NCBI GenBank assembly: GCA_942490535.1
Contig: CALNXQ010000001.1
Coordinates: 124,396 to 188,395, forward strand
Direction of reading: 5' to 3'
Origin: an uncultured Marinilabiliaceae bacterium
Lineage (GTDB): Bacteria > Bacteroidota > Bacteroidia > Bacteroidales > Marinilabiliaceae
DNA: 64,000 nt
Under the pieces are notes generated by a model. The model worked only from the letters and a program-made list of their open reading frames with translations, was not told the origin of the DNA and did no database searches. The first letter of the stretch is position 1, and every line of letters starts with the position of its first letter. Shown here one piece after another: positions 14,495-43,988 of the stretch. The position numbers and the translations under genes were made by a program.

Positions 14495-14505
14495 GATTGA
14501 ATGGT

Positions 14506-15237: not shown

Positions 15238-15318
15238 AGCATTAAATATTTTAAGACCGAATGATTGATGAATCCAATCAATTCAGAAGATTGAATATAG
15301 ATTCATAGAATGAAGGTG

Positions 15319-16251: not shown

Positions 16252-16281
16252 TTTATTTGAGTCTAATAATTATTAAAAGCT

Positions 16282-16289
16282 CAAAAATA
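16282..16289 (-). promoter_or_regulatory. -7 promoter box (TATTTTTG on minus strand) for the gldAFG operon
   Basis: The plus-strand CAAAAATA is about 31 nt upstream of the gldA start and matches TAnnTTTG. Confidence 0.4.
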
Positions 16290-16448
16290 AAATGCAGGTG
16301 AAATATCAAAAAATAAATAACTCATTTTAACCTCTTTTTAACGCAACTTATGTTTGGTAATCGAAGCTTGTAGTGGTGGTGCTGATTATTGAATACATTG
16401 AGTATTTTCAGAACGGAAGTTGTATCGAAGATGTGATAAACAAAAAAA

Positions 16449-16467
16449 GCCGCTGATAATCAGCGGC
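16449..16467. terminator. Intrinsic terminator hairpin immediately 3' of tRNA-Leu (bidirectional)
   Basis: GCCGCTGAT-A-ATCAGCGGC is a perfect 9-bp stem, flanked by A-run and T-run. Confidence 0.65.
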
Positions 16468-16472
16468 TTTTG

Positions 16473-16556
16473 TGCCCAGAACAGGACTCGAACCTGCACG
16501 TCCTTGCGAACACTGGTCCCTGAAACCAGCGCGTCTACCAATTTCGCCACCTGGGC
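16473..16556 (-). tRNA. tRNA-Leu (anticodon CAG), 84 nt, CCA not encoded
   Basis: I folded the cloverleaf manually. The acceptor is GCCCAGG/TCTGGGC, the anticodon stem-loop is CTGGT-TTCAGGG-ACCAG, and there is a long variable arm and a GGTTCGAGTCC T-arm. Confidence 0.85.
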
Positions 16557-16582
16557 GTGGGTCGTTGTTTCCAACAGCGGTG

Positions 16583-16590
16583 CAAATATA
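16583..16590 (-). promoter_or_regulatory. -7 promoter box (TATATTTG on minus strand) for tRNA-Leu
   Basis: It lies about 25 nt upstream of the mature tRNA 5' end. Confidence 0.4.
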
Positions 16591-16788
16591 GCAAAATTAG
16601 GGAATGCACCTGCATTGCATAAGGAAAAAAGTTATCCTCAATGTAAAAGTCCTTGGAAACTACGCTATTTCTTTTTTATCTGATACCTCTAAAGTGCTTG
16701 AAAACCCTTTCGGAGGTGATAGGATAAAAAAAAACACCCGACCAGAAAGAATTCCGATCAGGTGTTTAATGTATCTTAATCGTTCTCT

Positions 16789-18975
16789 TTAAAGATTCCT
16801 AAACAAGTAATCCGCTTTCATCTGATACAAGTGACTGCGAACATTACCCCCATAAATACTATGGTTGCGGTTCGGATAGGCAAACATATCAAATTGTTTT
16901 CCGGCCTGAACCAATCGATCCACATACTCCATTACATTTTGGAAATGGACATTGTCATCGGCGGTTCCGTGAATCAGGAATAGGCGACCACTCAAATCTT
17001 CCACATGGTTGATGGGGCTGTTGTCGTCATACCCATTGGCGTTTTCACGCGGGCGACGCATGTAACGCTCGGTGTACACCGAATCGTAATAGCGCCAGTT
17101 AGTCACTGGAGCCACTGCAATACCTACTTTAAATGCATCTGATTTACTCAAGCAAAGAGAGGTCATGAAACCACCATAGCTCCATCCCCAGATGCCAATG
17201 CGGTTACCGTCAATATAATCCAGAGAAGCCAGGTATTTGGCGCCTTCAATCTGATCGTCAGACTCCAACTTACCCAGTTTCATATAGGTGCATTTGCGGA
17301 ATGCTTCACCGCGGGCACCAGTACCCCGAGGGTCGATACAAACCACCATGTAGTCATTGGCTGCTAGATATTGTTCCCATCCAATGCCCCAGCGGTCTAG
17401 TACCTGTTGTGAGTTTGGCCCGCTGTATTGTGTCATTAAAACGGGGTATTGCTTATTGGCATCGAAGTTCAACGGTTTCACCATCCAGCCATTCAATTCA
17501 ACGCCTTCGCTGGTTTTAAAACGGAAGAACTCTTTGGGGCTAATTTCGAAATCAGTTAAACGTTTTTTCAGTGCTTCATTTTCTTCCAATACGCGAATTT
17601 GTTTGCCTTTACCATCGTGCAAAGTCACTAATGTTGGCGTATTAACATTGGAAAAATAATTGATGTAATATTTAAACCCTTTGCTGAAAGCTGCGCTGTT
17701 TGTGCCTTCCTGAGTTGAGAAGGCCATGCTTTTTTTGCCATCGGTACGAATAGCATAGACTTCACGGCGCATGGGCGATTGGGCTGCCGCCTGGTAGTAG
17801 AACATGCGGGTTTGAGCATTGTATCCCATGTATTCAGTGACATCCCAGTTTCCTTTTGTAATTTGTGCCACCTGACGGCCTGCCAGGGTATAAAGGTAGA
17901 TGTGGTTATATCCATCCATCTCACCCACATATACAAAGTGTTTGCCATCCTCCAGAAACTGTAGGTTATCCAATACATCAGATTCGATGTAGAACTCATT
18001 GCGATGTGTAAAAACGGCATTGGCAACTCCCGAAGCCGTATTGGCAATCAATAGATCCAACTGATTTTGATGGCGGTTCATGCGGATGATTCCCAGTTTA
18101 CCGCCTTCTTTGGTAAAGCGCACTCGTGGAATGTAGATATCTGTTTCTTCGCCAATGTTCATGGTTTTGGTGGTTCTGTTCTTAATGTTAAACACGTGAA
18201 CACTAACCACTGAATTATCCTGACCGGCCTTGGGATATTTAAACTTGTATTGGTCGGGATACAAAGCGTTGGCTTCGTTGTTGGGATGAGAAGCCTGGTA
18301 AACCGGGAAAGAGAATTCTTTAACATTGGATTCATCGAAACGCACAAAGGCAATTTCTTCGCTGTTGGCCGACCAGTCATAAGCCTGGTTGTAGCCAAAT
18401 TCTTCTTCGTAAACCCAGTCGGGTGCTCCGTTAATGATTTTGTTGAATTCACCATCGGTAGTGATGGCGCTTTCTGTACCGAACTTTAGCTTTTTCAGGA
18501 ATAAATCATTGTCACGCATGTAGGCGACCATTTCTCCATTGGGTGAGAAGGTAGCGATTTGTTGTTTGCCACTATCTGATAATGCTTCCAGTTCTTTTCT
18601 CTCAATGTCATAGACGTAGTAATTGGCTTTGAAAGAGTGGCGGTAAATACTTTCACTATTGGTATATAGCAATAGTTTGGTTTCATTGCCATTGAACTCA
18701 TAACCTTCGATGGTTTCGACAGGACAGTTCTCCAATTCTTCCAGATTGATAATGGTGCCCACTTTATTGCCTGATGCATAGGCGAATTTCTCAACGCGTT
18801 TTCCTTTTTCAAGCGTGGTAAAATGAATCCCGTCATTCATTGATCTCAAACCACGGACGGAACGGGCATAAAAAGAATAGTTCTTATTAATGTCGTCAAG
18901 AGAGACTTTCTTTTTTTGTGCCGTTACCATATACGGCATCAATAAGGCAGTCAAAACGAATAATAAATGTTTCAT
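16789..18975 (-). CDS. S9B family dipeptidyl-peptidase IV / prolyl tripeptidyl peptidase, secreted
   Basis: It has a signal peptide, an N-terminal DPP-IV beta-propeller region, and a C-terminal alpha/beta hydrolase with the GWSYGG nucleophile elbow. Confidence 0.85.
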   Translation of the reverse strand: MKHLLFVLTALLMPYMVTAQKKKVSLDDINKNYSFYARSVRGLRSMNDGIHFTTLEKGKRVEKFAYASGNKVGTIINLEELENCPVETIEGYEFNGNETKLLLYTNSESIYRHSFKANYYVYDIERKELEALSDSGKQQIATFSPNGEMVAYMRDNDLFLKKLKFGTESAITTDGEFNKIINGAPDWVYEEEFGYNQAYDWSANSEEIAFVRFDESNVKEFSFPVYQASHPNNEANALYPDQYKFKYPKAGQDNSVVSVHVFNIKNRTTKTMNIGEETDIYIPRVRFTKEGGKLGIIRMNRHQNQLDLLIANTASGVANAVFTHRNEFYIESDVLDNLQFLEDGKHFVYVGEMDGYNHIYLYTLAGRQVAQITKGNWDVTEYMGYNAQTRMFYYQAAAQSPMRREVYAIRTDGKKSMAFSTQEGTNSAAFSKGFKYYINYFSNVNTPTLVTLHDGKGKQIRVLEENEALKKRLTDFEISPKEFFRFKTSEGVELNGWMVKPLNFDANKQYPVLMTQYSGPNSQQVLDRWGIGWEQYLAANDYMVVCIDPRGTGARGEAFRKCTYMKLGKLESDDQIEGAKYLASLDYIDGNRIGIWGWSYGGFMTSLCLSKSDAFKVGIAVAPVTNWRYYDSVYTERYMRRPRENANGYDDNSPINHVEDLSGRLFLIHGTADDNVHFQNVMEYVDRLVQAGKQFDMFAYPNRNHSIYGGNVRSHLYQMKADYLFRNL

Positions 18976-19156
18976 GATTTATCTGTTTTTTTATTTAATT
19001 GCACATAAGGTGGGTAAGGCCCATGAAAACTTTACCTCAGAGTCAAAACTACAAAATAAGCCATGGATAAAACAAGGGGATTTGACAGTATTGTTAAATT
19101 GTGTCCATGAAAGTGTAATTTTTCAAGATAGTGCCGCTGCTTTCAGCTGTTTTATA

Positions 19157-29787: not shown

Positions 29788-31950
29788 ATGATCGATCATA
29801 TTTCGCGTTTTTGGAATAGTTATTATAAGCCCGTTTCCCGTATTATCATGTTTGTTGTGGCGGTGGGCTTTATTACTTATTTGCTACCTAAAACCAGTAA
29901 GTTTGGGTACGAATACATTCGGGGGATGCCCTGGAAACATTCCGTATTGATTGCGCAGTTTGATTTTCCCATTTACAAGACCCAGGAAGAATTAAAATCG
30001 GAAACAGATAGCTTGCTTCAAAACTTCAGACCTTATTTTACTAAGGATACAGCGGTTTTTGAGAAAATGGCACAACGGTTTCATCAGGAGGTGGATCAAT
30101 TTATTGTGGCCAATACTACTCAGTTTTCGGCCCTGGCTCAATTTTACAAAAAGGATACCTCTTATTTCGATTATGTCAAGCATCGGATTGATGCGGGGCT
30201 TAAGCAAGTGTACGATGAAGGTATTATCGTTTTACCGGAAGCCTATGCGCCGGTTCCTACCTTTGAATTTATGTTGATTCAGGGGGCCTATGTAGAACCT
30301 TTTGAACTCTCTGAAGTGAATTTGCAGGCCGACGCTTATCAACAGCTTCGCATGCAGGGATTAGGTGTGTTTTTAGCCGATACAACTAAACTGGGTCAGC
30401 TGGTGCATCATTTTGTGTCGGAGTTGTCACTGAATAAATACATTGAAGCCAACATAATCTTTGATCAAAGTCGCACGGCAGAGGAGCAACAGAATTTACA
30501 AAACAACATTTCCTTAACAGCTGGTCGTGTGCTGGCCGGACAACGCATTATTGATCAAGGCGAAATTGTCAATGACCAAACGGCTAAGGTTCTGGATTCC
30601 TTAAAACGTGATTTTGAGTCCGGACTAACACAGGCTTCCAGTTTCTACCTTATTTTAGGCGGGCAATTCTTAATCATCAGTTTGCTCTTTGGGGTGATTT
30701 ACCTGTTTCTGTATTATTTCCGGCGTGATGTCTATGAGCAGGTGGGATCTATCGGATTTTTGATGCTCATTATGATTTTGCTGATTTCATTGGCCAATTT
30801 GGGTCGTCTGTTCCCGCAATTTCCATTTTACATCATCCCATTTGCCATTTTGCCCATTATCGTCCGTACTTTTTTCGACAGTCGACTGGCCTTTTTTATC
30901 TATGTAATCACCATTTTAATCAGTGCTTTTTTTGCCGATAGTAGTTTTCAGTTTGTTTTTCTTCAGATACCAACCGGATTAATTGCCATGTTTAGCTTGT
31001 TCCGCATGGTACGCAGAAGTCACATAGTACGAGCGGCGCTTTTTATTTTTCTGACTTATTCCTTGTTTTACACCGCCTTGTCGTTGTGGCAGGAAGGGGA
31101 TGTGACAAAAATTGATTGGCACATGTTTGGCCATTTTGCGGCAAACGGTATTATGGTGCTCATGGTGTATCCTTTAATTTGGATTTTTGAACGCTTGTTT
31201 GGCTTTCTCTCTGATGTTACTTTAGTGGAGCTGGCTGATACCAACCATCCCATTTTACGCAAGTTGGCTGAAGCAACACCCGGTACCTTTCAGCACAGTG
31301 TGCAAGTCGGTAATTTGGCTCAGGAAGTGGCCTATAAATTAGATGCCAATCCGGCTTTGGTTAGGGCTGGTGCCATGTACCACGACATTGGTAAGATGGC
31401 CTCTCCCATGTTCTTTACTGAAAACCAGGCATCCGGTTTGAATCCGCACAATGAACTGGATTTTGAGGAGAGTGCCCTGATTGTGATTAATCACATTGAA
31501 AATGGCGTTCGGCTGGCGACTAAGCATAAATTACCAAGGCAGATTATTGATTTTATTGTCACCCACCAGGGAACTACAAAAACACGCTATTTCTATAATT
31601 CGTTCATTAATAAATACCCGGACCGGGTACCCGATATTAGTATGTTCTCCTATCCGGGACCTACGCCTTTCACCAAAGAAACAGCCATTTTGATGATGGC
31701 CGACTCCATTGAGGCAGCCTCTCGTAGTTTGAAGAGTTATTCCGACGATGAGATCGATAAATTGGTGGAGAAAATTGTAGGGATGCAGATTGAGGAAGAT
31801 CAATTTATTGATGCCCCCATCACGTTTAAGGAAATATCCATTGCCAAAGAGGTATTTAAGAGTAAGCTGAAAAATATTTATCATGCTCGCATTGAGTATC
31901 CGTCGATCAATAAGAAGGGATTCAAAAAAGGAAAGCACAGCAATAAATAA
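29788..31950 (+). CDS. 7TM receptor with intracellular HD/HDIG metal-dependent phosphohydrolase domain (7TMR-HD)
   Basis: It has a large N-terminal extracytoplasmic region, about 7 TM helices (residues ~290-480), and a C-terminal HD domain (HSVQVGNLA...AMYHDIGK). Confidence 0.75.
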   Translation: MIDHISRFWNSYYKPVSRIIMFVVAVGFITYLLPKTSKFGYEYIRGMPWKHSVLIAQFDFPIYKTQEELKSETDSLLQNFRPYFTKDTAVFEKMAQRFHQEVDQFIVANTTQFSALAQFYKKDTSYFDYVKHRIDAGLKQVYDEGIIVLPEAYAPVPTFEFMLIQGAYVEPFELSEVNLQADAYQQLRMQGLGVFLADTTKLGQLVHHFVSELSLNKYIEANIIFDQSRTAEEQQNLQNNISLTAGRVLAGQRIIDQGEIVNDQTAKVLDSLKRDFESGLTQASSFYLILGGQFLIISLLFGVIYLFLYYFRRDVYEQVGSIGFLMLIMILLISLANLGRLFPQFPFYIIPFAILPIIVRTFFDSRLAFFIYVITILISAFFADSSFQFVFLQIPTGLIAMFSLFRMVRRSHIVRAALFIFLTYSLFYTALSLWQEGDVTKIDWHMFGHFAANGIMVLMVYPLIWIFERLFGFLSDVTLVELADTNHPILRKLAEATPGTFQHSVQVGNLAQEVAYKLDANPALVRAGAMYHDIGKMASPMFFTENQASGLNPHNELDFEESALIVINHIENGVRLATKHKLPRQIIDFIVTHQGTTKTRYFYNSFINKYPDRVPDISMFSYPGPTPFTKETAILMMADSIEAASRSLKSYSDDEIDKLVEKIVGMQIEEDQFIDAPITFKEISIAKEVFKSKLKNIYHARIEYPSINKKGFKKGKHSNK

Positions 31951-32137: not shown

Positions 32138-32812
32138 TTACTCAAACGCTGCCCACAAACGCTCAAATTCTTTTTTGTATTGATCAATAGCTTTGGGATC
32201 GTTGGTTTCCAATATATTCTCCTGGTTGTATTCCGAAGCACTGCGGGTCCAGTTATAACTGCCGGTTAGCAAGAGGGTGTCATCAAACACCGCGAACTTA
32301 TGATGCATGTGGTGGGGCGAATCATCCATCTTGACTTTGGCACCCCGGTCTTTCAGAAATTCGATGTCGCTGCCCTTATCCATGGTTTTATCATCATCGG
32401 TAATGATGCGTACCGTCACACCTTTGTTGAGGGCATAAAGAATTTTATCACGAATACGATCATCGCTGATGGTGAATACGCAAATATCTATTTTGCGGGT
32501 GGCGCTGCCGATGTTAACATTAATGGTGTCCAAACAAGCCGTCCCCGGACTGAAAAAGGATTTTGAGTAAATGCCGGTGTCGGTTTTGGGGAGAATAAGT
32601 TTATTGGCTTCTTCGAGCCAGTCCACGATTTGTTCATTTTTAAAGTCACTGACTCGTTCCCTGGCCAGTTTGAAAATTTTACTTCGTAACCAGGTGAGTT
32701 CATCTTTAGACAGGTGTTTTTCCTGAAGAACTGCTTTTAGCGCTTTCTTTTCACCGCGCGTCAGAATGGCATCTTCCAATGAGGTTTTCAGATGCTCAAG
32801 AGTTTCTTTCAT
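32138..32812 (-). CDS. Phospholipase D-like (single HKD motif) family protein, putative Nuc-like nuclease, cytoplasmic
   Basis: The HKD motif is HHKFAVFDDTLLLTGSYNWT. There is no signal peptide. The N-terminal ~80 aa are helical and of unknown function. Confidence 0.6.
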   Translation of the reverse strand: MKETLEHLKTSLEDAILTRGEKKALKAVLQEKHLSKDELTWLRSKIFKLARERVSDFKNEQIVDWLEEANKLILPKTDTGIYSKSFFSPGTACLDTINVNIGSATRKIDICVFTISDDRIRDKILYALNKGVTVRIITDDDKTMDKGSDIEFLKDRGAKVKMDDSPHHMHHKFAVFDDTLLLTGSYNWTRSASEYNQENILETNDPKAIDQYKKEFERLWAAFE

Positions 32813-33564: not shown

Positions 33565-33626
33565 AAATAAATGCTAAAATAATTTGCACAAATAAAATTA
33601 CTTCCTATATTTGCTACTGTGGTTGT

Positions 33627-33635
33627 CAAAAATAG
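33627..33635 (-). promoter_or_regulatory. Candidate -7 box (TATTTTTG on minus strand) for the XRE-PLD operon
   Basis: The plus-strand CAAAAATAG is about 65 nt upstream of the XRE start. Confidence 0.3.
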
Positions 33636-33765
33636 TGATTTGAAACCAAAAATGCTAATTTATTTGTCAATTGGCGAAGGGTGCTGCTAACGAATGGTAC
33701 TTAATAGTATGAATTATTTTTTATCTAAATTCAGAGCCTTATATAATTAATTAAACACACAGCAA

Positions 33766-34161
33766 ATGGACAAACATTTTAAAAAAGTAAAAAACTACCT
33801 GTTGGAACTCAATTGTGAAATTGTTTCAGAGAATGAAGAAGATGGGGTGTTTGTAGTGAACAAAGAGGAGGAAGGCATTAAAAATCTGGTTCTGGGTTGT
33901 GCCGATCCGTTGTTGCTTATGGAGCAATTCATTTTTGAAATGAATCATGACTCTTTAGAGGTGTTTAAACTGCTACTGATGAAAAACAGGGACATTGTGC
34001 ATGGCGCCTTTGTACTGGATGAAACCGGCCGAAAGGTGATCTTCCGGGATACGTTGCAAATCGAAAACCTCGATTTAAATGAGGTGGAGGGATCTATTAA
34101 CTCATTGAGCTTGTTGCTCAGTGAATATGGGGATGAAATCATTAGGTTGTCAAATCAATAA
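33766..34161 (+). CDS. Small acidic cytoplasmic protein, possibly YbjN-like (T3SS-chaperone-like fold)
   Basis: It is 131 aa with no TM segments. Alternating hydrophobic patterns give a YbjN-like impression. It is the first gene of the pspA cluster and ends 12 nt before pspA. Confidence 0.35.
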   Translation: MDKHFKKVKNYLLELNCEIVSENEEDGVFVVNKEEEGIKNLVLGCADPLLLMEQFIFEMNHDSLEVFKLLLMKNRDIVHGAFVLDETGRKVIFRDTLQIENLDLNEVEGSINSLSLLLSEYGDEIIRLSNQ

Positions 34162-34172
34162 TAATTTGTAAC

Positions 34173-34880
34173 ATGAATATATTTAGTCGACTTTTTCGAA
34201 TTGGACAAGCAGAAGCACATTCTGCAGTGGATAAACTGGAAGATCCCATCAAAATGACCGAACAAGGGATCCGGGATCTCAAACAGCATCTGGATGAAAG
34301 TCTGAAAGCGTTTGCTGAAGTAAAGGCACTGGCCATTCGGTCACGCAACGATATGGAGTCTAGCCGCAAGCGTGCCAAAGATTATGAGGCCAAAGCAATT
34401 CTTCTATTGAAGAAAGCTGAGCAGGGGGCTATTGCTGCTGATGAAGCCGACCGACTGGCGACTGAAGCCCTGGCTAAAAAAGAAGAGGATGTGCAATTTG
34501 CCGCACAGAAGCAGGCTGAAGTGCAAAAATTTGATGTGAATATTGCGCAGTTAGATGCCAATATTAAAAAGTTAAGGTCAAAGATCAGTACCTATGAAAA
34601 TGAATTGCGCACTCTTCAGGCCCGCGTGAAAGTGAGTCAGGCCACTAAAAATATCAATAAACAAATGGCGCAGGTCGATCCTTCCAGTACCATTAGTATG
34701 TTGGAAAAAATGAAGGAGAAGGTGAATCAGGAAGAAGCGCTGGCCGAAGCATATGGTGATATTGCCAATGAATCCAAGAGTTTGGATGATGAAATCGCAG
34801 CGGCGATAGGAGATACCAATAAAGTGGCAGCCAGTGATGCGCTGGCTCAATTAAAAGAGAAATTAAGTAAAAAAGAATAG
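34173..34880 (+). CDS. pspA: PspA/IM30 (Vipp1, ESCRT-III-like) family protein
   Basis: The N-terminus MNIFSRLFRIGQAEAHSAVDKLEDPIKMTEQGIRDL... is a canonical PspA/IM30 start, followed by coiled-coil regions. Confidence 0.85.
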   Translation: MNIFSRLFRIGQAEAHSAVDKLEDPIKMTEQGIRDLKQHLDESLKAFAEVKALAIRSRNDMESSRKRAKDYEAKAILLLKKAEQGAIAADEADRLATEALAKKEEDVQFAAQKQAEVQKFDVNIAQLDANIKKLRSKISTYENELRTLQARVKVSQATKNINKQMAQVDPSSTISMLEKMKEKVNQEEALAEAYGDIANESKSLDDEIAAAIGDTNKVAASDALAQLKEKLSKKE

Positions 34881-34887
34881 TCTGCTG

Positions 34888-34922
34888 AAAGGTACATCCG
34901 AAAGGGTGTATCTTTCTTTTTT
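34888..34922 (+). terminator. Putative intrinsic terminator/attenuator after pspA
   Basis: An imperfect stem AAAGGTACATCC-GAAA-GGGTGTATCTTT (10 of 12 bp) is followed by CTTTTTTG. Confidence 0.45.
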
Positions 34923-35216
34923 GTCTACAAGGCAGGTAATAAATAGTTATATGAAAAGATGTGAGATAAAAAGCGGATTCCCTAACTGTATTTAACCCAA
35001 TATTTGTATTTTTGTCTCGCATCTCCGATCTGGGAGGTGTCCTCAATAAGCGTTCTTTGTTATCTCGTCCAGGTTATGTCACCCTTGATTACTGAATTTT
35101 TCAGTGGTTTTAATATTTCTTACGTCATTTGTAATGAGCCTGGCGCGTTCTAGCGTTGTACATTATTGGGCGACATCACCGGATCTGTTTTGAAACCAAA
35201 CGTTAACTCTACTCTT

Positions 35217-35873
35217 ATGATGGAACTATTTCAAGCTGCATTTGCAGGGGTGAACCTCATTCCCACCATTTTACTATTGCTGATTCTGGTGTATTGGTTA
35301 TTCGTCATCATAGGCGCCCTGGACATGGATTTTCTTGATATGGATGTCGATAGCGGAGATGTAGATGCTGATGTGGACTCCGACGTGGACACTGATTCAG
35401 ATCTGGGGTCTGCAGCCTTTTTAAATTCTATTCTTACCTTTTTTAACCTGGGTAAGATGCCGTTTATGGTCTGGCTGAGTTTCCTGTTTATTCCCATGTG
35501 GTGTATTTCACTGCTCATGAATTACTTTCTGATGAACGGCTCCTTTCTGCTTTCGTTGCTTTATTTAATTCCCAATCTTATTGTTAGTTTGATGGTGTCA
35601 AAAGTACTGACTACACCGGTGGCTGCACTGTTTGCAAAATTGAAGCACAATGCGGAGGATAGCTTTAAATATGCAGGCAAGGTATGCACAGCTTTAATGC
35701 AAACCGATCATCAAAAATACGGGCAGGCCGAGATTCATCATGAAGGCAATACGTTTCGCATTACGATTCTGACCAAAGAAGATGGGATTCGCTTGCAAAA
35801 AGGTGAAACCGGATTAGTGATTGATTTTCTAGAAGATAAAAAATGTTATTTAGTAGAACCCTATAAATTATAA
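35217..35873 (+). CDS. YqiJ/NfeD-like membrane protein (DUF1449-like) with C-terminal OB-fold
   Basis: It has several TM helices, an acidic D/V-rich loop (DMDVDSGDVDADVDSDVDTDSD) and a C-terminal beta-barrel region (GKVCTALMQTDHQKYGQAEIHHEGNTFRITIL). The start at 35217 (MMELFQ) is preferred over the track's 35166. It lies 3 nt upstream of the flotillin gene, as in E. coli yqiJK. Confidence 0.6.
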   Translation: MMELFQAAFAGVNLIPTILLLLILVYWLFVIIGALDMDFLDMDVDSGDVDADVDSDVDTDSDLGSAAFLNSILTFFNLGKMPFMVWLSFLFIPMWCISLLMNYFLMNGSFLLSLLYLIPNLIVSLMVSKVLTTPVAALFAKLKHNAEDSFKYAGKVCTALMQTDHQKYGQAEIHHEGNTFRITILTKEDGIRLQKGETGLVIDFLEDKKCYLVEPYKL

Positions 35874-35876
35874 AGA

Positions 35877-38084
35877 ATGGAATTTGTTGAAAGTTTAGGT
35901 GTTTCGGTGATTGTTCTATTTGCTGTTGTGGCTTTTGGAATATTGGCACTGATCGTAAAAACCTATCGTAAAGCCACACAAGGTCAGGCCTTGGTAAGAA
36001 CCGGTGCATTCGGAACAAAAGTTTCGTTTTCGGGGATGTTTGTTATTCCGGTTCTTCACCGCATGGAGATTATGGATATCACGCTTAAAACCATTGTTAT
36101 TGAAAGAGCAGGTAAAGAAGGCTTGATTTGTATGGATAATATGCGTGCTGATATCAAGGTGAACTTTTTTGTGCGGGTTAATAAAACCGGTGAGGATGTT
36201 GTGCAGGTGGCGCAGTCCATTGGTTGTCCGCGTGCTTCTGATCAAAAAGCGTTGGTGGATTTGTTTGATGCCAAATTTTCCGAGGCTTTAAAAACCGTGG
36301 GTAAACAATTTGAATTTGTGGAATTGTATAATTCCCGTGACAAATTCAAACATGAAATACTGAATATCATTGGCACCGACCTGAACGGTTACATCCTGGA
36401 TGATTGTGCCATTGACTTTTTGGAGCAAACTCCCTTAAGTTCTTTATCAGAAGATAATATTCTGGATGCAGAAGGTATTAAAAAGATTGTTGAGCTGACT
36501 GCCAGACAAAAGATATTATCCAATCAAATTGCACGCGATAAGGAGAAAACCATTACCAAGCAGGATGTGGAGGCGCGCGAAACGGTGTTGGAGTTAGAGC
36601 GTCAGTTAGCTGAATCGGAAGAGAACCAGCGACGCGAAGTGGCTAATATTAAAGATCGTCAGAATGCAGAAATAGCCAAGGTGGCGCAGGAACAACGCCT
36701 GATTGCTGAAAAAGCACGGATTGCCACAGAAGAAGAAGTGGCAGTAACAGAAAAGAACAAAGAGCGCCAGATTGTGATTGCAGAGAAGAATCGCGAAAAA
36801 GTTGAACTGGTCGAGACAGAGGCTGTGGAGCAGGATCGGGCTTTGAAGCAAACAGAACGCGAAAAAGTAGTGGCGTTGGCTCAGATTGCCAAAGAGAAAG
36901 AGCTGGAGATGCAGCGTAAAGAAATTCAGGAAGTGATTCGTGAGCGGGTGGAAGTAGAAAAAGCCACGGTTGCGGAACAGGAGAAAATTAAAGATACGCA
37001 GGAATTTGCCACAGCCGATCGGGCCAAGAAAGTGGCGATTACCACGGCTGAAATGGATGCTGAAGAGGCATTTGTGCGCGAGATTAAATCAGCTGAGGCC
37101 ACTAAAAATGCGGCTGAACACATCGCTAAAACCAAGTTGATTCAGGCGGAAGCTGAATATGCAGCTGCGGGTAAACACGCAGAAGCCACCAAAATTCTGG
37201 CTGAAGCAAAAGCGGCTGAAGCGGCAGCTTTAGGAATCGCCGAAGCCCAAGTGATTGAAGCGAAAGCGAAAGCCTTAGAGATTCAGGGAACCAATGAGGC
37301 CAAAGTAATGGAGGTGAAAGCCAAAGCGGAAGCAACTGGTGTGAAAGCGAAAGCCGAGGCAGATGCTGACGCAGCTAAAAATGTAGGAGTGGCTGCCGCC
37401 ATGGTCGTCAAAGCGAAAGCAGAAGCGGATGCTGAAGCTACCAAAAATGTAGGCGTTGCAGAAGCGGAAGTCATCAAAGCAAAAGCGGTGGCTGCCGAAG
37501 AAAAAGGACAGGCTGAGAACAAGGTGTTGGAAGAGCGCTACGCTGTGGAAGCCAAGGGTATCGAAGAAAAAGGGATGGCCATGAAGAAACTGGATTCTGT
37601 TGGTCGTGACCACGAGGAGTTCAAGTTGAAACTTGATATGGAGAAAGAATTGGAGCTGGCACGCATCCGCATTCAGAAAGATATTGCTGATGCTCAGGCC
37701 CAGGTGATTGCCGAAGCTTTGAGAGCTGCCAATATTGATATTGTGGGTGGCGAAACCATGTTCTTTGATAAAATTATCGGTTCAATCACACAAGGAAAGC
37801 AGGTGGATAAGATTGTGAACAACAGCCAAATCATTTCTGAAATAAAAGATCATTTCTTTGATGGTTCGGATGGTAAGAGCTTTAAAGAGCAAATCAATAG
37901 TTTTATTAGCCAGTTTGGGTTGTCATCCGAGGATGTGAAAAATCTGTCCATTAGTGCATTGCTTTATAAAATGATGCAGGCCAATAAGGATCAGAAAACT
38001 GAAGGAGTTTTGAACAACCTGAGTGAAATAGCCAAGTCATTAGGTGTTTCTGAGAAAACAGCTGGTTTCTTAGGAATCGTTTAA
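35877..38084 (+). CDS. Flotillin/SPFH (band 7) family protein, YqiK-like, extended (735 aa)
   Basis: It has an N-terminal TM helix and an SPFH domain (residues ~40-220), followed by a long coiled-coil with Ala/Glu/Lys-rich flotillin repeats. Confidence 0.8.
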   Translation: MEFVESLGVSVIVLFAVVAFGILALIVKTYRKATQGQALVRTGAFGTKVSFSGMFVIPVLHRMEIMDITLKTIVIERAGKEGLICMDNMRADIKVNFFVRVNKTGEDVVQVAQSIGCPRASDQKALVDLFDAKFSEALKTVGKQFEFVELYNSRDKFKHEILNIIGTDLNGYILDDCAIDFLEQTPLSSLSEDNILDAEGIKKIVELTARQKILSNQIARDKEKTITKQDVEARETVLELERQLAESEENQRREVANIKDRQNAEIAKVAQEQRLIAEKARIATEEEVAVTEKNKERQIVIAEKNREKVELVETEAVEQDRALKQTEREKVVALAQIAKEKELEMQRKEIQEVIRERVEVEKATVAEQEKIKDTQEFATADRAKKVAITTAEMDAEEAFVREIKSAEATKNAAEHIAKTKLIQAEAEYAAAGKHAEATKILAEAKAAEAAALGIAEAQVIEAKAKALEIQGTNEAKVMEVKAKAEATGVKAKAEADADAAKNVGVAAAMVVKAKAEADAEATKNVGVAEAEVIKAKAVAAEEKGQAENKVLEERYAVEAKGIEEKGMAMKKLDSVGRDHEEFKLKLDMEKELELARIRIQKDIADAQAQVIAEALRAANIDIVGGETMFFDKIIGSITQGKQVDKIVNNSQIISEIKDHFFDGSDGKSFKEQINSFISQFGLSSEDVKNLSISALLYKMMQANKDQKTEGVLNNLSEIAKSLGVSEKTAGFLGIV
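37344..37475 (+). repeat. Two tandem 66-nt (22-aa) repeats inside the flotillin gene
   Basis: The encoded repeats are KAKAEADADAAKNVGVAAAMVV and KAKAEADAEATKNVGVAEAEVI, and the nucleotide copies are about 80% identical. Confidence 0.7.
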
Positions 38085-38096
38085 GACCAGAATATT

Positions 38097-38122
38097 GGGG
38101 TGAATACACGAGTATTCACCCC
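38097..38122 (+). promoter_or_regulatory. Very stable hairpin between the flotillin and giant ATPase genes
   Basis: GGGGTGAATAC-ACGA-GTATTCACCCC is a perfect 11-bp stem with a tetraloop. No T-run follows. Confidence 0.6.
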
Positions 38123-38191
38123 GATCTCTTTGAGGGGATCTATACTTTCCGGAATGCATAATTTAACCAATCACAATAAATCGAAAAGGAT

Positions 38192-41100
38192 ATGTCAGAC
38201 GATCAGGTGATGAATACAGACAGCGTCCAGCTGGAGGAAGGAACCTATGAAATTATTAAGAATCGCCTTCGCAAGCATGGGGATGATCTGAATGAACGAC
38301 TTGATAAACTGAATGCGGCGCGCAAAGAAGTCTTTGGTTCCATCGAAACTACATTGGTCGCTACCGATCGCATTACGACCGATAATAACTGTTCGCCGGC
38401 AGATATGGTGGCCTTTGGTAATTTGATGTTGTTTGGCTACAATGTTACCATTGGTTTGAAAACAAAAACCACACCCCAGGATGTGTTTAGTATCTATAGA
38501 TACGGTGATCATACCTTTGCCAAACAGAAATCTGAACTCATCAGTGATCCTCAGTTTCTAAAGGACTTTGATAACCTATACGAGTATTATAAAATCACCA
38601 CATTTATAAAGTTTGCCGTCATCGGCCCGCACTTGTTCATGGTGTTCAGAACTGGTAAAGGAGTTGATGACATTAAAGCCTTCAAATGGCTCATTATTGG
38701 GGAGCAATTGCAATACCTGGGAAATCGCAGTACTCATGAATATGTATTTCCCGATCAGCATGAATTTCAGTGGAAGAAAACAACCCGTGACATGTACGTG
38801 TATGGAGAGCATCCGCATGTATCCATTGAAGATATTGTATTTGTAGAAACGGTGGGGGGCGATTTAACCATTAAGGTGGAAGATAATACCAATTCAGGAT
38901 TGGGTATATTGGCGGAAGATGTAGAGGTGAAGGAGCAGACCCTGGATGATGCAGAGATGTACTATGCCATTATTGGTAACCTGGTGGTGTTAAAGATTAA
39001 ACCGTATCAGGAGAAGGCATATCGTTACTTTGTTTATAATTCCAAGGTTCAGGAAGCCAAACGGATTGATGCGTTGGAAGATTCATGTGTATTGCTGCCG
39101 GACAACCAGGGTTTGATCTTTGCCAATGGTTATTACCTTCAAAATGGTCAATACAAGTTATTTGATAATCAGGTGGAAGATTTACTCTTCGAAACCAAAT
39201 ATGCCTCAGTGAATGGGGAGGATTATTTATATGTTTTCTATAATCAGCAATTTGGTACGTATGTATTGTTGATTTATAATTTGATTACCCAGCGCATAGA
39301 GACGCCTCTTTTATGTAATGGCTACTCCATTTTTGATAACGGGGAACTCTGCTACTTCAAAGGGCAGGAAGAAGAATCCCGGAATCATGCCATTCAGGTG
39401 TGGCAAACGCCTTTTGTAAGTACAAATTTTGAGTTGCCCACAGCTAATAACTCCCGCTTGTATAAAATCGGCAACAAGGATATTGTGCGTGCCATGGCAG
39501 AATGTAATGAGGTATTGATTCTTATTCGCAAGGAAGACTCCTACGCCAATTTATATGTGGATTTGGTCAAGCGCTCAACGAATATCATGGATTCCTATTA
39601 CTGGATTGATGAAACGGAGGCCTTTCACTTGAATCAGCCTTTAGTAGCCATAAAAAAATCGGCAGCATCGGCCATTAATGAATTTGAGAAGGTAAAAACC
39701 ATCCGTAAGGATACCAAAGATAAAGTTCAACAAACCCGCCAGAAGGTTGAGGAAATCTTTAAGCACATTACAAAGCAGCAATTTACCGATATTAATCGCT
39801 TTGTCGATCTCCTGGCTGCTTTGCGTGCTGTACGGGGTGAAGTGATTAGTCTGAAGGAATTGCGCTACGTCGACTTAGGGTTTGTCAAAGAGCTGGAGGT
39901 TTCTGTAGAAGAGAAAACGAAACGTCTTTCGCAGGATTGTGTCCGTTTTTTGTTGCGAGATGATGCACTTAATAGTTATAAGAAGCGCGTTGATGAGATC
40001 CGGAATGGGGTAAAAGCCATTGCCAAGGTGAAAGAAGCGGATGAGTTGGCCGATGAAATACTCAAGGTAGCCAATCAGTTGGAAATGCTCATTGACATTG
40101 TGAGTAATCTGAAAATTGAGGATGCCACTCAAACTACGCAGATTATTAATAATATTTCGGAGGTGTATTCACAATTCAACCAGATCAAGGCGGAATTGAA
40201 AAAGCAACGGAAAAACCTTCGTTCCGTAGAAGCGCAGGCTGAATTTGCGTCTCAACTAAAGCTGGTGGAGCAGGGAATGGTGAATTATCTGGATTTATGT
40301 GATTCACCTGGCAAAACCGATGAGTACCTTTCTAAATTGATGGTTCAACTGGAAGAGCTGGAAGGGAAGTTTAGCGATTTCGAGGAATTTATCGATAAGG
40401 TTGCACAACGACGTGAGGAGGTTTACAATGCTTTTGAATCCAAAAAGCTCAACCTGGTCGAAACGCGTAACCGCCGGACCACAGCCCTTCAGTCTTCTGC
40501 TGAGCGGATTTTAAAAGCCATTCGAAGCCGGGTGTCCAAGTTTAAGGATGTCAATGACGTAAATGGCTATTTCGCCTCTGATTTGATGATTGAAAAGGTC
40601 CGCGATGTCATCGCTGAGCTGAAAGCTATGGATGATAACATCAAAGCCGATGATCTTGAGAGTAAACTCAAATCGGTTAAAGAAGAGACTGTGCGGCAAA
40701 TTAAAGACCGCCTGGAGTTGTTTGAAGAGGGTGCCAATATCATCAAATTCGGCAATCATAAGTTTTCGGTGAATGTGCAGCAGCTGGAACTCTCCATGGT
40801 GAATCGCGACAATCAGATGTTCTATCACTTATCGGGGACTAATTTTTTTGAGGCTGTCAAAAGTGAATCGTTTTTGGCCACAAAAAATGTATGGAACCAA
40901 GTGTTGCCTTCGGAAGATAGTTCTGTATATCGAAGTGAGTTTTTGGCCTATCATATTTTTCAGGCTGCCCAACAGTCCGTTAATGGCACTGAACCTGGGG
41001 TGAAGGAACTTTCGGCCTATAATTCGGAGGAGTTACAGGCATATGTGCAGAAGTTCATGTCGGTACGATATAATGAAGGGTATTCAAAAGGAATCCACGA

Positions 41101-43087
41101 TGAAGATGCCCGTACCATCTTAGCAGCCTGCCTTCAAGTGAATGAAAATGCAGATCTGCTTTGTTATGCAGCGCAGGCGAGAGCCTGTGCGGAGTATTTC
41201 TGGAGGATATATCTGAGTGAACAGCAACGTAATGAATTAAATTACAATTTAAAAGGGGCGGGTCTTATCTTAAAAGTATTTCCACGTACCAGGCAGTTTG
41301 ATTACCTGCAGGAGACGTTAAAAAGGCGAATGCATGATTTTTTATCGGGCATCAACTTATTTGATGCGCGAATCACTGATGAAGCGGCTGGATATCTGTT
41401 TTATGAGATGACGCGGGGTGATCAGTTTATTCTATCTGGAGTGGGCAACGAAATTCTGAATACATTCTATAGTTATCTGAGAAAAAGTCAGGCTATTGGG
41501 CATTACGAGAATTCACTTAAGCCGCTGAAGGCTCAGCCAGATCAGGCCTTGCAATTGATTCGTAGCTGGCTGAATGCGTTTTTCGATGATGCCGGTGGGG
41601 ATCGGGAATATTTGGATGAATGTGCCATGACTTTGTTATTGGAATCGATGGATAGTAAGAAGCTAATTGATCAATCGGTGAAATTGGAATTAAAAGGATT
41701 GAAAGGGTCTCATGGCCTCATAAAAGAAGATTCCTATGCTTTTGATTACAATGCTTTCATGGCACGGTTAAAGGAATTCTCTACGGTAAAGTCGGAGCAG
41801 TTTAATCAATACAATGCATTGAAAAAAAAGTTAGTAGAAGACTTTGCTTATGACCTGCGGTTAAATGAATTTAAACCAAGGGTGTTAACTTCCTTTGTGC
41901 GAAATAAATTGATTGATAAGGTGTATTTACCACTAATCGGGAATAACCTGGCCAAGCAAATTGGGGCCGAAGGGGAAGGGAAACGGACGGACTTAATGGG
42001 AATGTTGCTGTTGATTTCTCCTCCTGGATATGGTAAAACCACGTTGATGGAATATCTGGCCAGTCGTTTGGGGATTATCTTTATGAAGATCAACGGACCA
42101 TCCATTGGACATGCCATTACATCGTTGGATCCCTCTGAAGCAGCCAATGCAGCCGCTCGGGAGGAGTTGGAGAAACTAAATCTGGCCTTTGAGATGGGAG
42201 ATAACGTCATGATCTATCTGGACGATATTCAGCATTGTAACCCGGAGTTTTTACAGAAATTTATTTCCCTTTGTGATGCCCAGCGTAAGATTGAAGGCGT
42301 CTATAAAGGAAGGAGTAAAACCTATGATTTTCGGGGTAAGAAAGTATGTGTGGTGATGGCTGGTAATCCATATACTGAAAGTGGCGACAAGTTTAAAATA
42401 CCGGATATGTTAGCCAACCGGGCTGATATCTATAACATAGGTGATATATTGGGTGGGTCTGAAGAGGAGTTTAAATTGAGTTATATCGAGAACTCTTTAA
42501 CATCCAATCCGGCATTAAATAAGTTGGCTTCTAAAAGTCAAAAGGACTTATATACGCTCATTAGCATTGCCAGTACCGGTAAAAAAGATGGTTTTGAGTT
42601 TGAGTCCAGTCATACCCCCGATGAGATTGCTGAATATGTGGATGTGTTGAAAAAGCTAATCCTTGCCCGCGATGTGATTTTGAAAGTCAATCAGGCATAT
42701 ATTCACTCCGCAGCTCAGGCGGATGAGCACAGGACCGAGCCACCATTTAAATTGCAAGGTTCCTATCGGGATATGAATAAAATATCCGAAAAGGTACTTG
42801 CGGTGATGAATGAGAAAGAGATGGAAACTCTTATTTTGTCACATTACCAGAATGAAGCGCAAACCTTAACCACAGGTGCAGAGGCTAATATGTTAAAATT
42901 TAAAGAGATGTACGAAGTGATTACGCCGGATGAGAAACAACGCTGGGAAGCAATTAAAGAGTCCTTTGTCAGAAGTAATCGCCTGAAAGGAATGGGGGAC
43001 AATGATCAAACTACCCACATGATAGTACAAATGGAAGAAATAGCAAAAGGTGTCATTGGTATTAAGGATGTCATGAGCCAACAATAG
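38192..43087 (+). CDS. Giant (1631 aa) multidomain protein: N-terminal beta-rich region, central coiled-coil, C-terminal AAA_5 (MoxR/dynein-like) ATPase module
   Basis: The Walker A motif is ISPPGYGKTTL (~aa 1265). The Walker B-like motif is VMIYLDDIQHCNPE. Sensor 1 is VVMAGNPY, and the arginine-finger region is ANRADIYNIGD. About 500 aa between residues 480 and 1000 are heptad-rich coiled-coil. Residues 1-450 are beta-rich and of unknown fold. No TM segments are present. Confidence 0.6.
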   Translation: MSDDQVMNTDSVQLEEGTYEIIKNRLRKHGDDLNERLDKLNAARKEVFGSIETTLVATDRITTDNNCSPADMVAFGNLMLFGYNVTIGLKTKTTPQDVFSIYRYGDHTFAKQKSELISDPQFLKDFDNLYEYYKITTFIKFAVIGPHLFMVFRTGKGVDDIKAFKWLIIGEQLQYLGNRSTHEYVFPDQHEFQWKKTTRDMYVYGEHPHVSIEDIVFVETVGGDLTIKVEDNTNSGLGILAEDVEVKEQTLDDAEMYYAIIGNLVVLKIKPYQEKAYRYFVYNSKVQEAKRIDALEDSCVLLPDNQGLIFANGYYLQNGQYKLFDNQVEDLLFETKYASVNGEDYLYVFYNQQFGTYVLLIYNLITQRIETPLLCNGYSIFDNGELCYFKGQEEESRNHAIQVWQTPFVSTNFELPTANNSRLYKIGNKDIVRAMAECNEVLILIRKEDSYANLYVDLVKRSTNIMDSYYWIDETEAFHLNQPLVAIKKSAASAINEFEKVKTIRKDTKDKVQQTRQKVEEIFKHITKQQFTDINRFVDLLAALRAVRGEVISLKELRYVDLGFVKELEVSVEEKTKRLSQDCVRFLLRDDALNSYKKRVDEIRNGVKAIAKVKEADELADEILKVANQLEMLIDIVSNLKIEDATQTTQIINNISEVYSQFNQIKAELKKQRKNLRSVEAQAEFASQLKLVEQGMVNYLDLCDSPGKTDEYLSKLMVQLEELEGKFSDFEEFIDKVAQRREEVYNAFESKKLNLVETRNRRTTALQSSAERILKAIRSRVSKFKDVNDVNGYFASDLMIEKVRDVIAELKAMDDNIKADDLESKLKSVKEETVRQIKDRLELFEEGANIIKFGNHKFSVNVQQLELSMVNRDNQMFYHLSGTNFFEAVKSESFLATKNVWNQVLPSEDSSVYRSEFLAYHIFQAAQQSVNGTEPGVKELSAYNSEELQAYVQKFMSVRYNEGYSKGIHDEDARTILAACLQVNENADLLCYAAQARACAEYFWRIYLSEQQRNELNYNLKGAGLILKVFPRTRQFDYLQETLKRRMHDFLSGINLFDARITDEAAGYLFYEMTRGDQFILSGVGNEILNTFYSYLRKSQAIGHYENSLKPLKAQPDQALQLIRSWLNAFFDDAGGDREYLDECAMTLLLESMDSKKLIDQSVKLELKGLKGSHGLIKEDSYAFDYNAFMARLKEFSTVKSEQFNQYNALKKKLVEDFAYDLRLNEFKPRVLTSFVRNKLIDKVYLPLIGNNLAKQIGAEGEGKRTDLMGMLLLISPPGYGKTTLMEYLASRLGIIFMKINGPSIGHAITSLDPSEAANAAAREELEKLNLAFEMGDNVMIYLDDIQHCNPEFLQKFISLCDAQRKIEGVYKGRSKTYDFRGKKVCVVMAGNPYTESGDKFKIPDMLANRADIYNIGDILGGSEEEFKLSYIENSLTSNPALNKLASKSQKDLYTLISIASTGKKDGFEFESSHTPDEIAEYVDVLKKLILARDVILKVNQAYIHSAAQADEHRTEPPFKLQGSYRDMNKISEKVLAVMNEKEMETLILSHYQNEAQTLTTGAEANMLKFKEMYEVITPDEKQRWEAIKESFVRSNRLKGMGDNDQTTHMIVQMEEIAKGVIGIKDVMSQQ

Positions 43088-43091
43088 TTAG

Positions 43092-43988
43092 TTACTTTTT
43101 TTGTGTTTCAGAATCCGGTGGGTAGTGTCTTCCTGCCGGTTTCTTTTTTTGTTCAAACAGGCCAAAGCGATCGGTAATCAAACCAATGATTTCATTGGCA
43201 GTGGTTTCAATAGGTTTGTTTGTTACATTGATAATGGTGAACCCGCCGCGTTCAAACACAAAATGGGCATGTCGGATTTCCTGCTTCACAAAGTCAGGAT
43301 CCACATAATGGGTGTTGGTAGTATTTTGCATTTGCTCCAATCGTTTTTGGCGCATTGATAAGAGGGTGGACAGGTTAATATTAAGGCCAAAAACCCGGCG
43401 TGGATCAAGCTTAAACAACTCTGGTGGGGGCGCAATACCTTTCACCAACGGAACATTGGCTACTTTCCAGCCAAACATTGACATATAGACGCTTAATGGT
43501 GTTTTTCCTGCTCTGGAAACACCGGTCAGAATGATTTCAGCATCAAATAGACGGTTTGTGTTTACCCCATCGTCATGATTCAAGGCGTATTCAATGGCTT
43601 CGATGCGTTCGTAGTATTGGGCATTAATGCGACGGTACAGCCCGGGCACATTAACCGAAACCAATCCTAGTTTATTTTCCAGGAAGTTGGCCAAATCCCC
43701 CATTAGATCAATTTGATTTACCTCACATTCTTTACAAGTTGCTATTAAAAATTCACGCAGGTGGGCATTCACCATCGTGTGCACAATTAAACCATTATGA
43801 CGTTTCACACGGTTAACAACTTCCTTTATTTTGGCATCTGTTTGTACATTTGGAATGATGTTCACATGCACTTTGTTGTCGGGATACTGAATGAGTAACC
43901 CTCGCACCAGGGTGTGTCCGGCCACTCCTTTACCACCTGAGATGATGAATAGCGGCACTTGTTGAGATAAATCAGACTTATCCATCAA
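43092..43988 (-). CDS. ppsR: PEP synthase / pyruvate phosphate dikinase regulatory protein (bifunctional kinase-pyrophosphorylase, DUF299)
   Basis: The P-loop-like motif GVSRAGKTPLSVYMS and the N-terminal IISGGKGVAGHT are seen. It is 298 aa. Confidence 0.75.
   Translation of the reverse strand: MMDKSDLSQQVPLFIISGGKGVAGHTLVRGLLIQYPDNKVHVNIIPNVQTDAKIKEVVNRVKRHNGLIVHTMVNAHLREFLIATCKECEVNQIDLMGDLANFLENKLGLVSVNVPGLYRRINAQYYERIEAIEYALNHDDGVNTNRLFDAEIILTGVSRAGKTPLSVYMSMFGWKVANVPLVKGIAPPPELFKLDPRRVFGLNINLSTLLSMRQKRLEQMQNTTNTHYVDPDFVKQEIRHAHFVFERGGFTIINVTNKPIETTANEIIGLITDRFGLFEQKKKPAGRHYPPDSETQKK

Follow-up and report, generated by a model that had tools for sequence, protein, structure and literature searches.

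Gene Content and Organization of the Locus

The locus studied here lies in a 64,000-nt stretch of DNA (the window) from an uncultured Marinilabiliaceae bacterium (GenBank assembly GCA_942490535.1, contig CALNXQ010000001.1, positions 124,396 to 188,395 of the forward strand). Five genes that point in the same direction encode a CesT/Tir-like protein, a PspA/IM30 protein, a YqiJ/YuaF-like membrane protein, a long SPFH/flotillin-like protein and a giant AAA+ ATPase, and two divergently transcribed genes next to them encode a helix-turn-helix (HTH) regulator and a PLD-superfamily protein (Table 1). This cluster is conserved as a genuine functional unit, with the YqiJ–flotillin–ATPase triad as its evolutionary core, and it belongs, with near certainty, to an operon class that has been described by Ravi et al. 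(mSystems 2024, PMC11237479; preprint 2020).

The five forward-strand genes are found in the list of open reading frames (ORFs) at exactly the coordinates given in an earlier note on this DNA. Families were assigned with Pfam profiles, supplemented by NCBIfam for PspA and by PADLOC (2023) for defence systems. The family assignments made in the note hold, that of the SPFH protein only through the Pfam match of its residues 1–250. One label had to be replaced: the first gene product, called YbjN-like, matches CesT_Tir_1 over its full length, and the YbjN profile gives a weak match below the cutoff (0.0059). The description as one co-directional cluster also falls short, since a strong terminator-like hairpin follows pspA and since the divergent HTH and PLD genes, which lie to the left of the coordinates considered in the note, are part of the system as well. 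Within the window the CesT-like and PspA genes are 11 nt apart, the YqiJ-like and flotillin genes 3 nt, and the flotillin and ATPase genes 107 nt, while the PLD gene begins 14 nt downstream of the HTH gene.

Table 1. Features of the cluster, in window coordinates, with the match or method behind each row.
Feature	Position	Strand	Basis
PLD-superfamily protein, 224 aa, cytoplasmic, single HKD motif, accessory member	32138..32812	-	PLDc_2 4.9e-32
Divergent regulator, 245 aa: XRE-type HTH, LexA/CI-like S24-type C-terminal domain, C-terminal helix	32827..33564	-	HTH_3 1.7e-9
Putative divergent promoter/operator region	33565..33765	.	Read from sequence and repeat finder
CesT/Tir-like (YbjN-related) chaperone-fold protein, 131 aa	33766..34161	+	CesT_Tir_1 PF22550 3e-56, full length
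PspA/IM30 protein (bacterial ESCRT-III superfamily), 235 aa	34173..34880	+	PspA_IM30 9.4e-43
Intrinsic-terminator-like hairpin, 13-bp stem and T-run, directly 3' of pspA	34887..34925	+	Terminator scan
YqiJ/YuaF-like (NfeD-type) membrane protein with three transmembrane segments, 218 aa from ATG	35217..35873	+	YqiJ_N 3.5e-4
Long SPFH/flotillin-like scaffold, 735 aa	35877..38084	+	Band_7 on N-terminal residues
Two tandem perfect stem-loops in the flotillin–ATPase spacer, no clear U-tract	38098..38140	+	Inverted repeat
Giant cytoplasmic AAA+ protein, 1631 aa	38192..43087	+	DUF3686 5e-182, DUF7902 9.4e-28, AAA/AAA_5 ~1e-6
ATPase residues 54–405, beta-propeller-like all-beta domain, core of DUF3686	38351..39406	+	AlphaFold2 model; Foldseek
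ATPase residues 420–843, long helical bundles/coiled coil, includes DUF7902 (aa 591–675)	39449..40720	+	AlphaFold2 secondary structure
ATPase residues ~1260–1470, AAA+ core	41969..42601	+	AAA/AAA_5, motifs

Conservation of the Cluster

An alignment of ATPase homologues was used to retrieve 80 loci from species-representative genomes. These span at least seven phyla, with members of the Bacteroidota, Planctomycetota, Verrucomicrobiota, Desulfobacterota, Clostridia, Kiritimatiellota, and Omnitrophota, and the six-frame ORFs of every locus were searched with the proteins of the window. Flotillin and YqiJ were counted in the 66 informative loci with at least 3 kb of sequence upstream of the ATPase gene, and PspA, CesT, HTH and PLD in the 62 with at least 6.5 kb.

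In 63/66 loci the gene immediately 5' of the ATPase gene, and co-directional with it, is that for flotillin, and the YqiJ-like gene accompanies the ATPase gene in 60/66. The synteny between ATPase and flotillin on which the earlier note had staked its proposal is thus borne out. Its counterpart for PspA holds in part: pspA is linked in 24 of the 62 loci, all of them from Bacteroidota, and is absent from the other 38 and from every locus outside this phylum. The CesT-like gene (23/62) and the divergent HTH gene (23/62) are likewise restricted to Bacteroidota, and the PLD gene is found in 6/62 loci. A CesT-like gene never occurs without the divergent HTH gene (23/23 CesT loci). The ATPase therefore tracks flotillin and YqiJ and not PspA, and the placement of flotillin next to it across many phyla is far from chance. 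CesT–PspA and the regulator form a Bacteroidota-specific module.

Spacing is tight along most of the cluster, with median gaps across the loci of ~13 nt between CesT and PspA and ~20 nt between PspA and YqiJ, and with YqiJ and flotillin tightly coupled. The system is present in at least 564 species-level genomes of the collection that was scanned, from many phyla, and the identity of the core proteins is 55–72% across Bacteroidota and 45–53% to other phyla. No extra conserved gene was found between the flotillin and ATPase genes across the loci. Downstream of the ATPase gene no conserved gene was found across the loci either, save for a gene set in five Bacteroidota loci.

This set (L002, positions 14989–19116, and also L007, L031, L041, and L071) consists of four co-directional genes directly 3' of the ATPase gene. 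Judged from their sequences, they may encode a DUF4178-like protein, a lipoprotein, a DUF350/YjfL-like membrane protein and a spermidine-synthase-like protein with seven transmembrane segments. The set, which agrees with the second of the PspA-associated operon types in Ravi et al., is absent from the window, where neither paralogues of the system nor a second PspA operon were found elsewhere.

Insertions of heterogeneous ORFs concentrate in the spacer that separates the flotillin gene from the ATPase gene (L003, L012, L016, L030, L038, L039, L050, L061, L068, L075, and others). Some of the inserted ORFs look toxin-antitoxin-like or transposase-like and others resemble small membrane proteins, and the flanking genes are still adjacent and co-directional.

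The Flotillin-Like and YqiJ-Like Proteins

The 735-aa protein has an N-terminal transmembrane anchor and a Band_7 domain (aa 33–172). These are followed by a long coiled coil rich in Ala, Glu and Lys, within which a pattern of the form KAKAEADA..KNVGVA..V.KAKA is repeated, and by a C-terminal domain that is conserved. Searched at full length the protein has no Pfam match even at E=10 and no match in the PDB by phmmer. Residues 1–250 alone match Band_7 at 9.2e-11, with 42.5 bits against a cutoff of 23.6. The Band_7 cutoff is also exceeded by two orthologues (L016 and L066), and a profile of the orthologues finds the coiled coil of QmcA (8z5g), an SPFH protein, at 5e-5. Judged by these profile matches, the SPFH assignment is correct, and the likeliest cause of the full-length miss is the composition-bias filter of HMMER acting on the Ala/Glu/Lys coiled coil. 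No Pfam family matched the C-terminal part, and the label flotillin is not backed by a profile.

The ORF of the YqiJ-like protein opens at a TTG (35166), which would give 235 aa; the ATG used in Table 1 is the likelier start. The protein reads as three transmembrane segments with an acidic, D-rich loop, followed by a beta-rich C-terminal domain. The YqiJ_N match of the window protein falls just short of the cutoff; among 21 orthologues, 9 match this profile (best 1e-6). In the same profile searches the NfeD family (PF01957) gives a weak match (0.005) in 1/21 orthologues.

The Giant AAA+ Protein

AlphaFold2 (AF2) models of the ATPase (pLDDT 81 and 83) predict a helix, an all-beta domain, a helical bundle/coiled coil of ~420 residues, a helical middle part, the AAA+ core and a helical C-terminus that extends to aa 1631. 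Foldseek gave matches to beta-propeller-containing proteins. The core carries a Walker A motif (GYGKTT, aa 1279–1284), a Walker B motif (IYLDD, aa 1341–1345), a candidate sensor-1 residue (N1392) that is preceded by a beta-hairpin before the sensor-1 strand, and a candidate Arg finger (R1410). In the alignment the Walker A motif and the sensor-1 Asn and Arg-finger candidates are invariant across phyla. The Walker B motif ends in Asp-Asp (D1344–D1345, window positions 42221–42226) and not in the canonical hhhhDE. None of the aligned homologues departs from this Asp-Asp, be they from Bacteroidota, Planctomycetota, Verrucomicrobiota, Desulfobacterota, or Clostridia.

Among solved AAA+ structures, NorQ and CbbQ rather than Vps4 come nearest, by a small margin over Hsp100, dynein and Lon. 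Together with the AAA_5 match, this suggests a MoxR/AAA_5-like core, in line with the class named in the earlier note. Pfam and NCBIfam scans revealed no MIT, peptidase, DNA-binding, nuclease or helicase domain in the protein, and no transmembrane segment was detected.

The ATPase has more than 5,394 homologues, the best of which are a metagenome protein (90% identity) and a protein from Carboxylicivirga (72%). These matches suggest that the DNA comes from a relative of Carboxylicivirga, a genus of the Marinilabiliaceae. Its N-terminal DUF3686 domain is represented by 729 clusters at 50% identity. Among the best 150 DUF3686 matches, the long proteins (~1,500–2,040 aa) have the domain at their N-terminus or close to it, while shorter matches are probably fragments. 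Linkage to pspA makes no difference to the length of the ATPase, which is 1617–1681 aa in linked loci vs 1615–1652 aa in L003, L016, L036, and L040.

ATPases from outside Bacteroidota have variable C-terminal extensions of 100–350 aa. These contain ankyrin repeats in a Desulfobacterales locus (L022, ~14861–15706) and TPR repeats in a Desulfococcaceae locus (L039, ~14327–14998). No fused VWA domain was found in these extensions, and besides the ankyrin and TPR carriers they gave only sub-threshold matches.

The Bacteroidota Module, the Divergent Genes and Intergenic Elements

In 23 Bacteroidota loci pspA is preceded by the CesT-like gene, whose product is presumed to be a partner of PspA. The PspA protein is not a canonical PspA equivalog, as the NCBIfam equivalogs score far under their cutoff (60.5 bits vs 243). 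Its N-terminus has an amphipathic-helix-like sequence, MNIFSRLFRIGQAEA.

In the divergent regulator, the C-terminal half matches LexA C-terminal domains weakly (E 0.015–0.04, profile of 23 orthologues). The S24-type domain lacks the catalytic Ser, and its GDSM motif is not conserved in the alignment of orthologues. The PLD protein next to it has neither a signal peptide nor a transmembrane segment in its sequence. Its best solved relatives are mitochondrial cardiolipin hydrolases (MitoPLD/Zucchini, 1.4e-25) vs ~1e-8 for the bacterial Nuc/NucT nucleases. The same PLD family adjoins the system in three arrangements (L002, L030, and L070; L010; L069 and L077), in Bacteroidota and Verrucomicrobiota. 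These findings hint at local remodelling of phospholipids, possibly cardiolipin.

The region between the two divergent transcription units contains a Bacteroidetes-type promoter-like motif, TTTG (33583–33586)-N19-TATATTTG (33606–33613). A direct repeat, TGCTA-N6-TTGTCAA, overlaps it at 33612–33629 and recurs at 33653–33670 with a spacing of 41 bp. The pattern occurs three times in the window at no more than one mismatch, vs 0.53 expected, and the direct repeat is a candidate operator. It was not found in the HTH–cesT spacers of other loci. The k-mers TTAGCAA/TTTGC, which are enriched in those spacers, were considered as an operator and set aside since they look like generic Bacteroidetes promoter sequence.

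Two further elements could shape expression within the cluster. The hairpin directly after pspA has a predicted folding energy of -19.2 kcal/mol (z -4.6) as RNA and is followed by a spacer of 336 nt. It is likely an attenuator that separates cesT–pspA from yqiJ–flotillin–ATPase in this genome; across the other loci a terminator at this position was absent in most, where pspA and yqiJ nearly abut. The stem-loops in the flotillin–ATPase spacer (-27.1 kcal/mol, z -5.1) may act as a processing, stabilizing or attenuating element.

The genes that flank the cluster appear unrelated to it. They encode a 7TM-receptor/HD-hydrolase protein upstream (29788–31950, + strand) and, convergent with the ATPase gene downstream, a PpsR-type kinase/pyrophosphorylase (43092–43988, - strand). 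The single tRNA of the window is a tRNA-Leu(CAG) at 16472–16556 (- strand).

Relation to Described Systems

The earlier note took the system to be undescribed. Its composition is not new, having been published from comparative genomics between 2020 and 2024, down to the regulator and the PLD protein. Ravi et al. described an operon with CesT/Tir–PspA, YqiJ/YuaF, a band-7/flotillin protein and a beta-propeller/coiled-coil AAA+ protein, exemplified by Dokdonia donghaensis (ANH61663.1), for which their supplement gives the context as '<-cHTH+Protease CesT_Tir-> ...' (PMC11237479). They mention an occasional PLD for some Proteobacteria only, report an abbreviated form of the operon with a wider distribution, and read the system as 'membrane dynamics/chaperone-like assembly' in a purely computational paper (PMC11237479).

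All defining features of their operon are present in the window: the CesT–PspA pair, a YqiJ-type protein with three transmembrane segments, Band_7 followed by a coiled coil, the propeller AAA+ protein and the divergent regulator. Gene order and domain architectures are the same, including the 'cHTH+Protease' type of regulator and the optional PLD, and the abbreviated YqiJ–flotillin–ATPase form is widespread among our loci as well. The differences are that the PLD gene lies behind the regulator gene here and belongs to a family that recurs in Bacteroidota and Verrucomicrobiota loci, and that pspA is followed by a terminator-like hairpin in this genome; otherwise nothing essential differs. No experimental work on the operon was found in the literature searched, in line with the note, whose author was aware of no characterized system of this composition. 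Searches for DUF3686, for 'DNA repair ATPase' with flotillin, for MoxR with flotillin and for stress expression of the system in Bacteroidota likewise gave nothing relevant.

Parts of the cluster resemble well-known gene pairs. YqiK and FloT are ~500–550 residues long, and by this measure the flotillin of the window is ~200 residues longer, owing to a longer coiled coil. As in E. coli yqiJ–yqiK, B. subtilis yuaF–floT and S. aureus nfeD–floA, an NfeD/YqiJ-type gene is placed immediately upstream of the SPFH gene. The operons of these model organisms lack the giant AAA+ gene found 3' of the pair here, and the NfeD OB-fold is weakly supported in the YqiJ-like protein of the window. In B. subtilis the pspA-ydjGHI operon places a PspA gene next to an SPFH gene (ydjI) in the same manner but contains no ATPase gene. 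PspA has furthermore been reported with band-7/FloT, NfeD and HTH regulators in Acidobacteriota (Popp et al., 2022).

For the ATPase the comparison is with other AAA+ systems. HflK/C faces the periplasm, whereas the flotillin described here is predicted to be cytoplasmic. FtsH is a membrane-anchored protease, while the ATPase of the window appears MoxR-like and has no detected transmembrane segment or peptidase domain. What the two systems would share is the pairing of an SPFH scaffold with an AAA+ ATPase at the inner membrane, and the complex of HflK/C with the AAA+ protease FtsH (PMC13220708) is a precedent for such a partnership. Compared with MoxR family members such as NorQ, CbbQ, and RavA, the protein exceeds the matched chains of NorQ (254 aa) and CbbQ (267 aa) three- to sixfold in size, has propeller and helical domains that add ~1,250 residues on the N-terminal side, ends its Walker B motif in Asp-Asp, and has no VWA-domain gene adjacent to it among the neighbours scanned with Pfam. 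The cluster also recalls the ESCRT-III/Vps4 systems of archaea and eukaryotes in that the gene for an ESCRT-III-superfamily polymer, PspA, adjoins that of an AAA+ ATPase; the ATPase here is not of the Vps4 type, has no MIT domain by Pfam and is not obligately linked to PspA.

Proposed Function and Alternatives

We favour the reading that the cluster encodes a stress-linked (stress-inducible) membrane-scaffold module in which the ATPase remodels flotillin/YqiJ assemblies and PspA is a Bacteroidota add-on. We would give this reading about an even chance of being right, a judgement that blends our near certainty about the operon class with rather lower, slightly less than even confidence in the specific mechanism. 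That mechanism, the ATP-driven remodelling or unloading of flotillin/YqiJ assemblies, is suggested by three lines: the synteny, the MoxR chaperone-like AAA+ core, and the precedents of HflK/C–FtsH, FloA–NfeD and SPFH–PspA. FloA–NfeD stabilizes unfolded proteins and is an ATP-independent holder of unfolded membrane proteins (PMC11222466), and SPFH proteins form cup-like oligomers and are needed for recruitment of PspA in B. subtilis (2025 review; bioRxiv 2026.02.06.704340).

According to this proposal, the flotillin would use its N-terminal anchor and its NfeD-type YqiJ partner to form a large cage or microdomain of the SPFH type on the inner membrane, facing the cytoplasm. The MoxR-like AAA+ protein, presumably a ring oligomer, would dock via its beta-propeller and long helical arm and use ATP to assemble, disassemble or unload scaffolds or client proteins. 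In Bacteroidota a stress-effector add-on would bring PspA as an ESCRT-III-type membrane-sealing polymer, the CesT-like chaperone that probably keeps PspA soluble, and the divergent XRE/LexA-like repressor that would control the locus. In some genomes, including this one, the MitoPLD-like HKD enzyme could modify cardiolipin-type lipids locally. The hairpin after pspA and those before the ATPase gene would probably set graded expression levels (PspA > flotillin > ATPase). A bolder version, in which the ATPase is a dedicated ATP-driven motor for the assembly and disassembly of flotillin (SPFH) cages that is also coupled to PspA in Bacteroidota, is put forward tentatively, as it is less likely to be true than false by some way.

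Several observations weigh against the module as we read it. The junction between the flotillin and ATPase genes is the loosest of the cluster (median ~206 nt, with 28 of 69 spacers longer than 400 nt), and the ATPase gene might therefore be transcribed separately; the spacers above 400 nt often hold unrelated inserted ORFs. In three loci the ATPase gene is an orphan in unrelated contexts with no flotillin gene nearby. The lengths of flotillin and ATPase do not co-vary (Spearman 0.06). As the Walker B motif is an invariant Asp-Asp, hydrolysis may be slow or the protein may be a nucleotide switch. The YqiJ/NfeD assignment comes from profile matches that are sub-threshold or partial, and both the ATPase activity and the physical interactions are predictions.

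The earlier note had framed the system around PspA and Vps4, and the giant ATPase could indeed be a functional analogue of Vps4 that recycles or disassembles the PspA polymer on damaged membrane. The two genes stand in one co-directional cluster here and are linked in the same Bacteroidota loci counted above, and the niche seems open, as a Vps4-like ATPase appears to be absent in bacteria (2025 review). Genomes without a linked pspA may moreover encode PspA elsewhere, as Ravi et al. suggest (PMC11237479). Yet pspA is missing from more than half of the informative loci and from all of those outside Bacteroidota, and the operons without it have ATPases of the same size, which speaks against any PspA-specific module in the protein. 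The lack of a MIT domain by Pfam, the closeness to NorQ/CbbQ and the terminator-like hairpin that parts pspA from the downstream genes in the window point the same way. The Vps4 framing is not supported by these comparisons, and we consider it unlikely and a weaker fit than the remodelling of flotillin/YqiJ assemblies.

Other functions appear less probable still. A conflict or anti-phage system of the abortive-infection-like kind, in which the ATPase would sense or switch and the PLD-family enzyme would act as an effector together with the membrane proteins, might be read from the resemblance of the adjoining PLD domain to DrmC, DpdK, and MkoC and of the XRE-type HTH to RmrA, CapH, and control proteins, from the mobile, toxin-antitoxin-like or unrelated ORFs often inserted before the ATPase gene, and from the variable ankyrin and TPR modules on the ATPase C-termini. 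PADLOC gave no significant match for the five core proteins, though: CesT, YqiJ, and flotillin have none at all, PspA and the ATPase have marginal ones in coiled-coil or P-loop parts, and the best (mad8, 0.0023) covers the P-loop region only. PLD occurs in just 6 of the informative loci and is nearer to cardiolipin hydrolase than to Nuc nucleases, and high conservation with stable synteny is more in keeping with a housekeeping or stress module than with a defence island that evolves fast. We therefore hold a defence role to be improbable. It is more improbable by far that the giant protein is a DNA-repair ATPase that stands next to membrane genes incidentally, which is what its homologues' name in NCBI and UniRef ('DNA repair ATPase') and the Pfam text for DUF3686 ('ATPase involved in DNA repair') would imply and what weak matches to RuvB in the P-loop region would favour. 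Those matches span only ~45 residues around Walker A, the Pfam and NCBIfam scans found no DNA-binding, nuclease or helicase domain, no literature on DUF3686 or on such an ATPase with flotillin turned up in the library searched, and the gene directly follows a flotillin gene in nearly all informative loci from many phyla. The public name appears unsupported and may mislead.

Relative to what had been published, the present analysis refines the system by separating core from accessory genes and by recognizing a putative MoxR-like rather than Vps4-like motor with an invariant DD Walker B motif, a MitoPLD-like accessory and an internal terminator-like hairpin in this genome. The other members, PspA with its CesT-like partner as well as the LexA-like regulator and the MitoPLD-like enzyme, are best treated as lineage-specific accessories, and as the triad is the conserved core, experiments should address the flotillin/YqiJ–ATPase axis first. 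For the question of how turnover of flotillin cages and PspA/ESCRT-III polymers is controlled without a Vps4-type ATPase, this operon family offers the most obvious candidate for an ATP-dependent partner. If the bolder version is true, the giant protein would be the first ATP-dependent remodeller of bacterial SPFH/ESCRT-III-type scaffolds, by convergence with Vps4 and not by homology.

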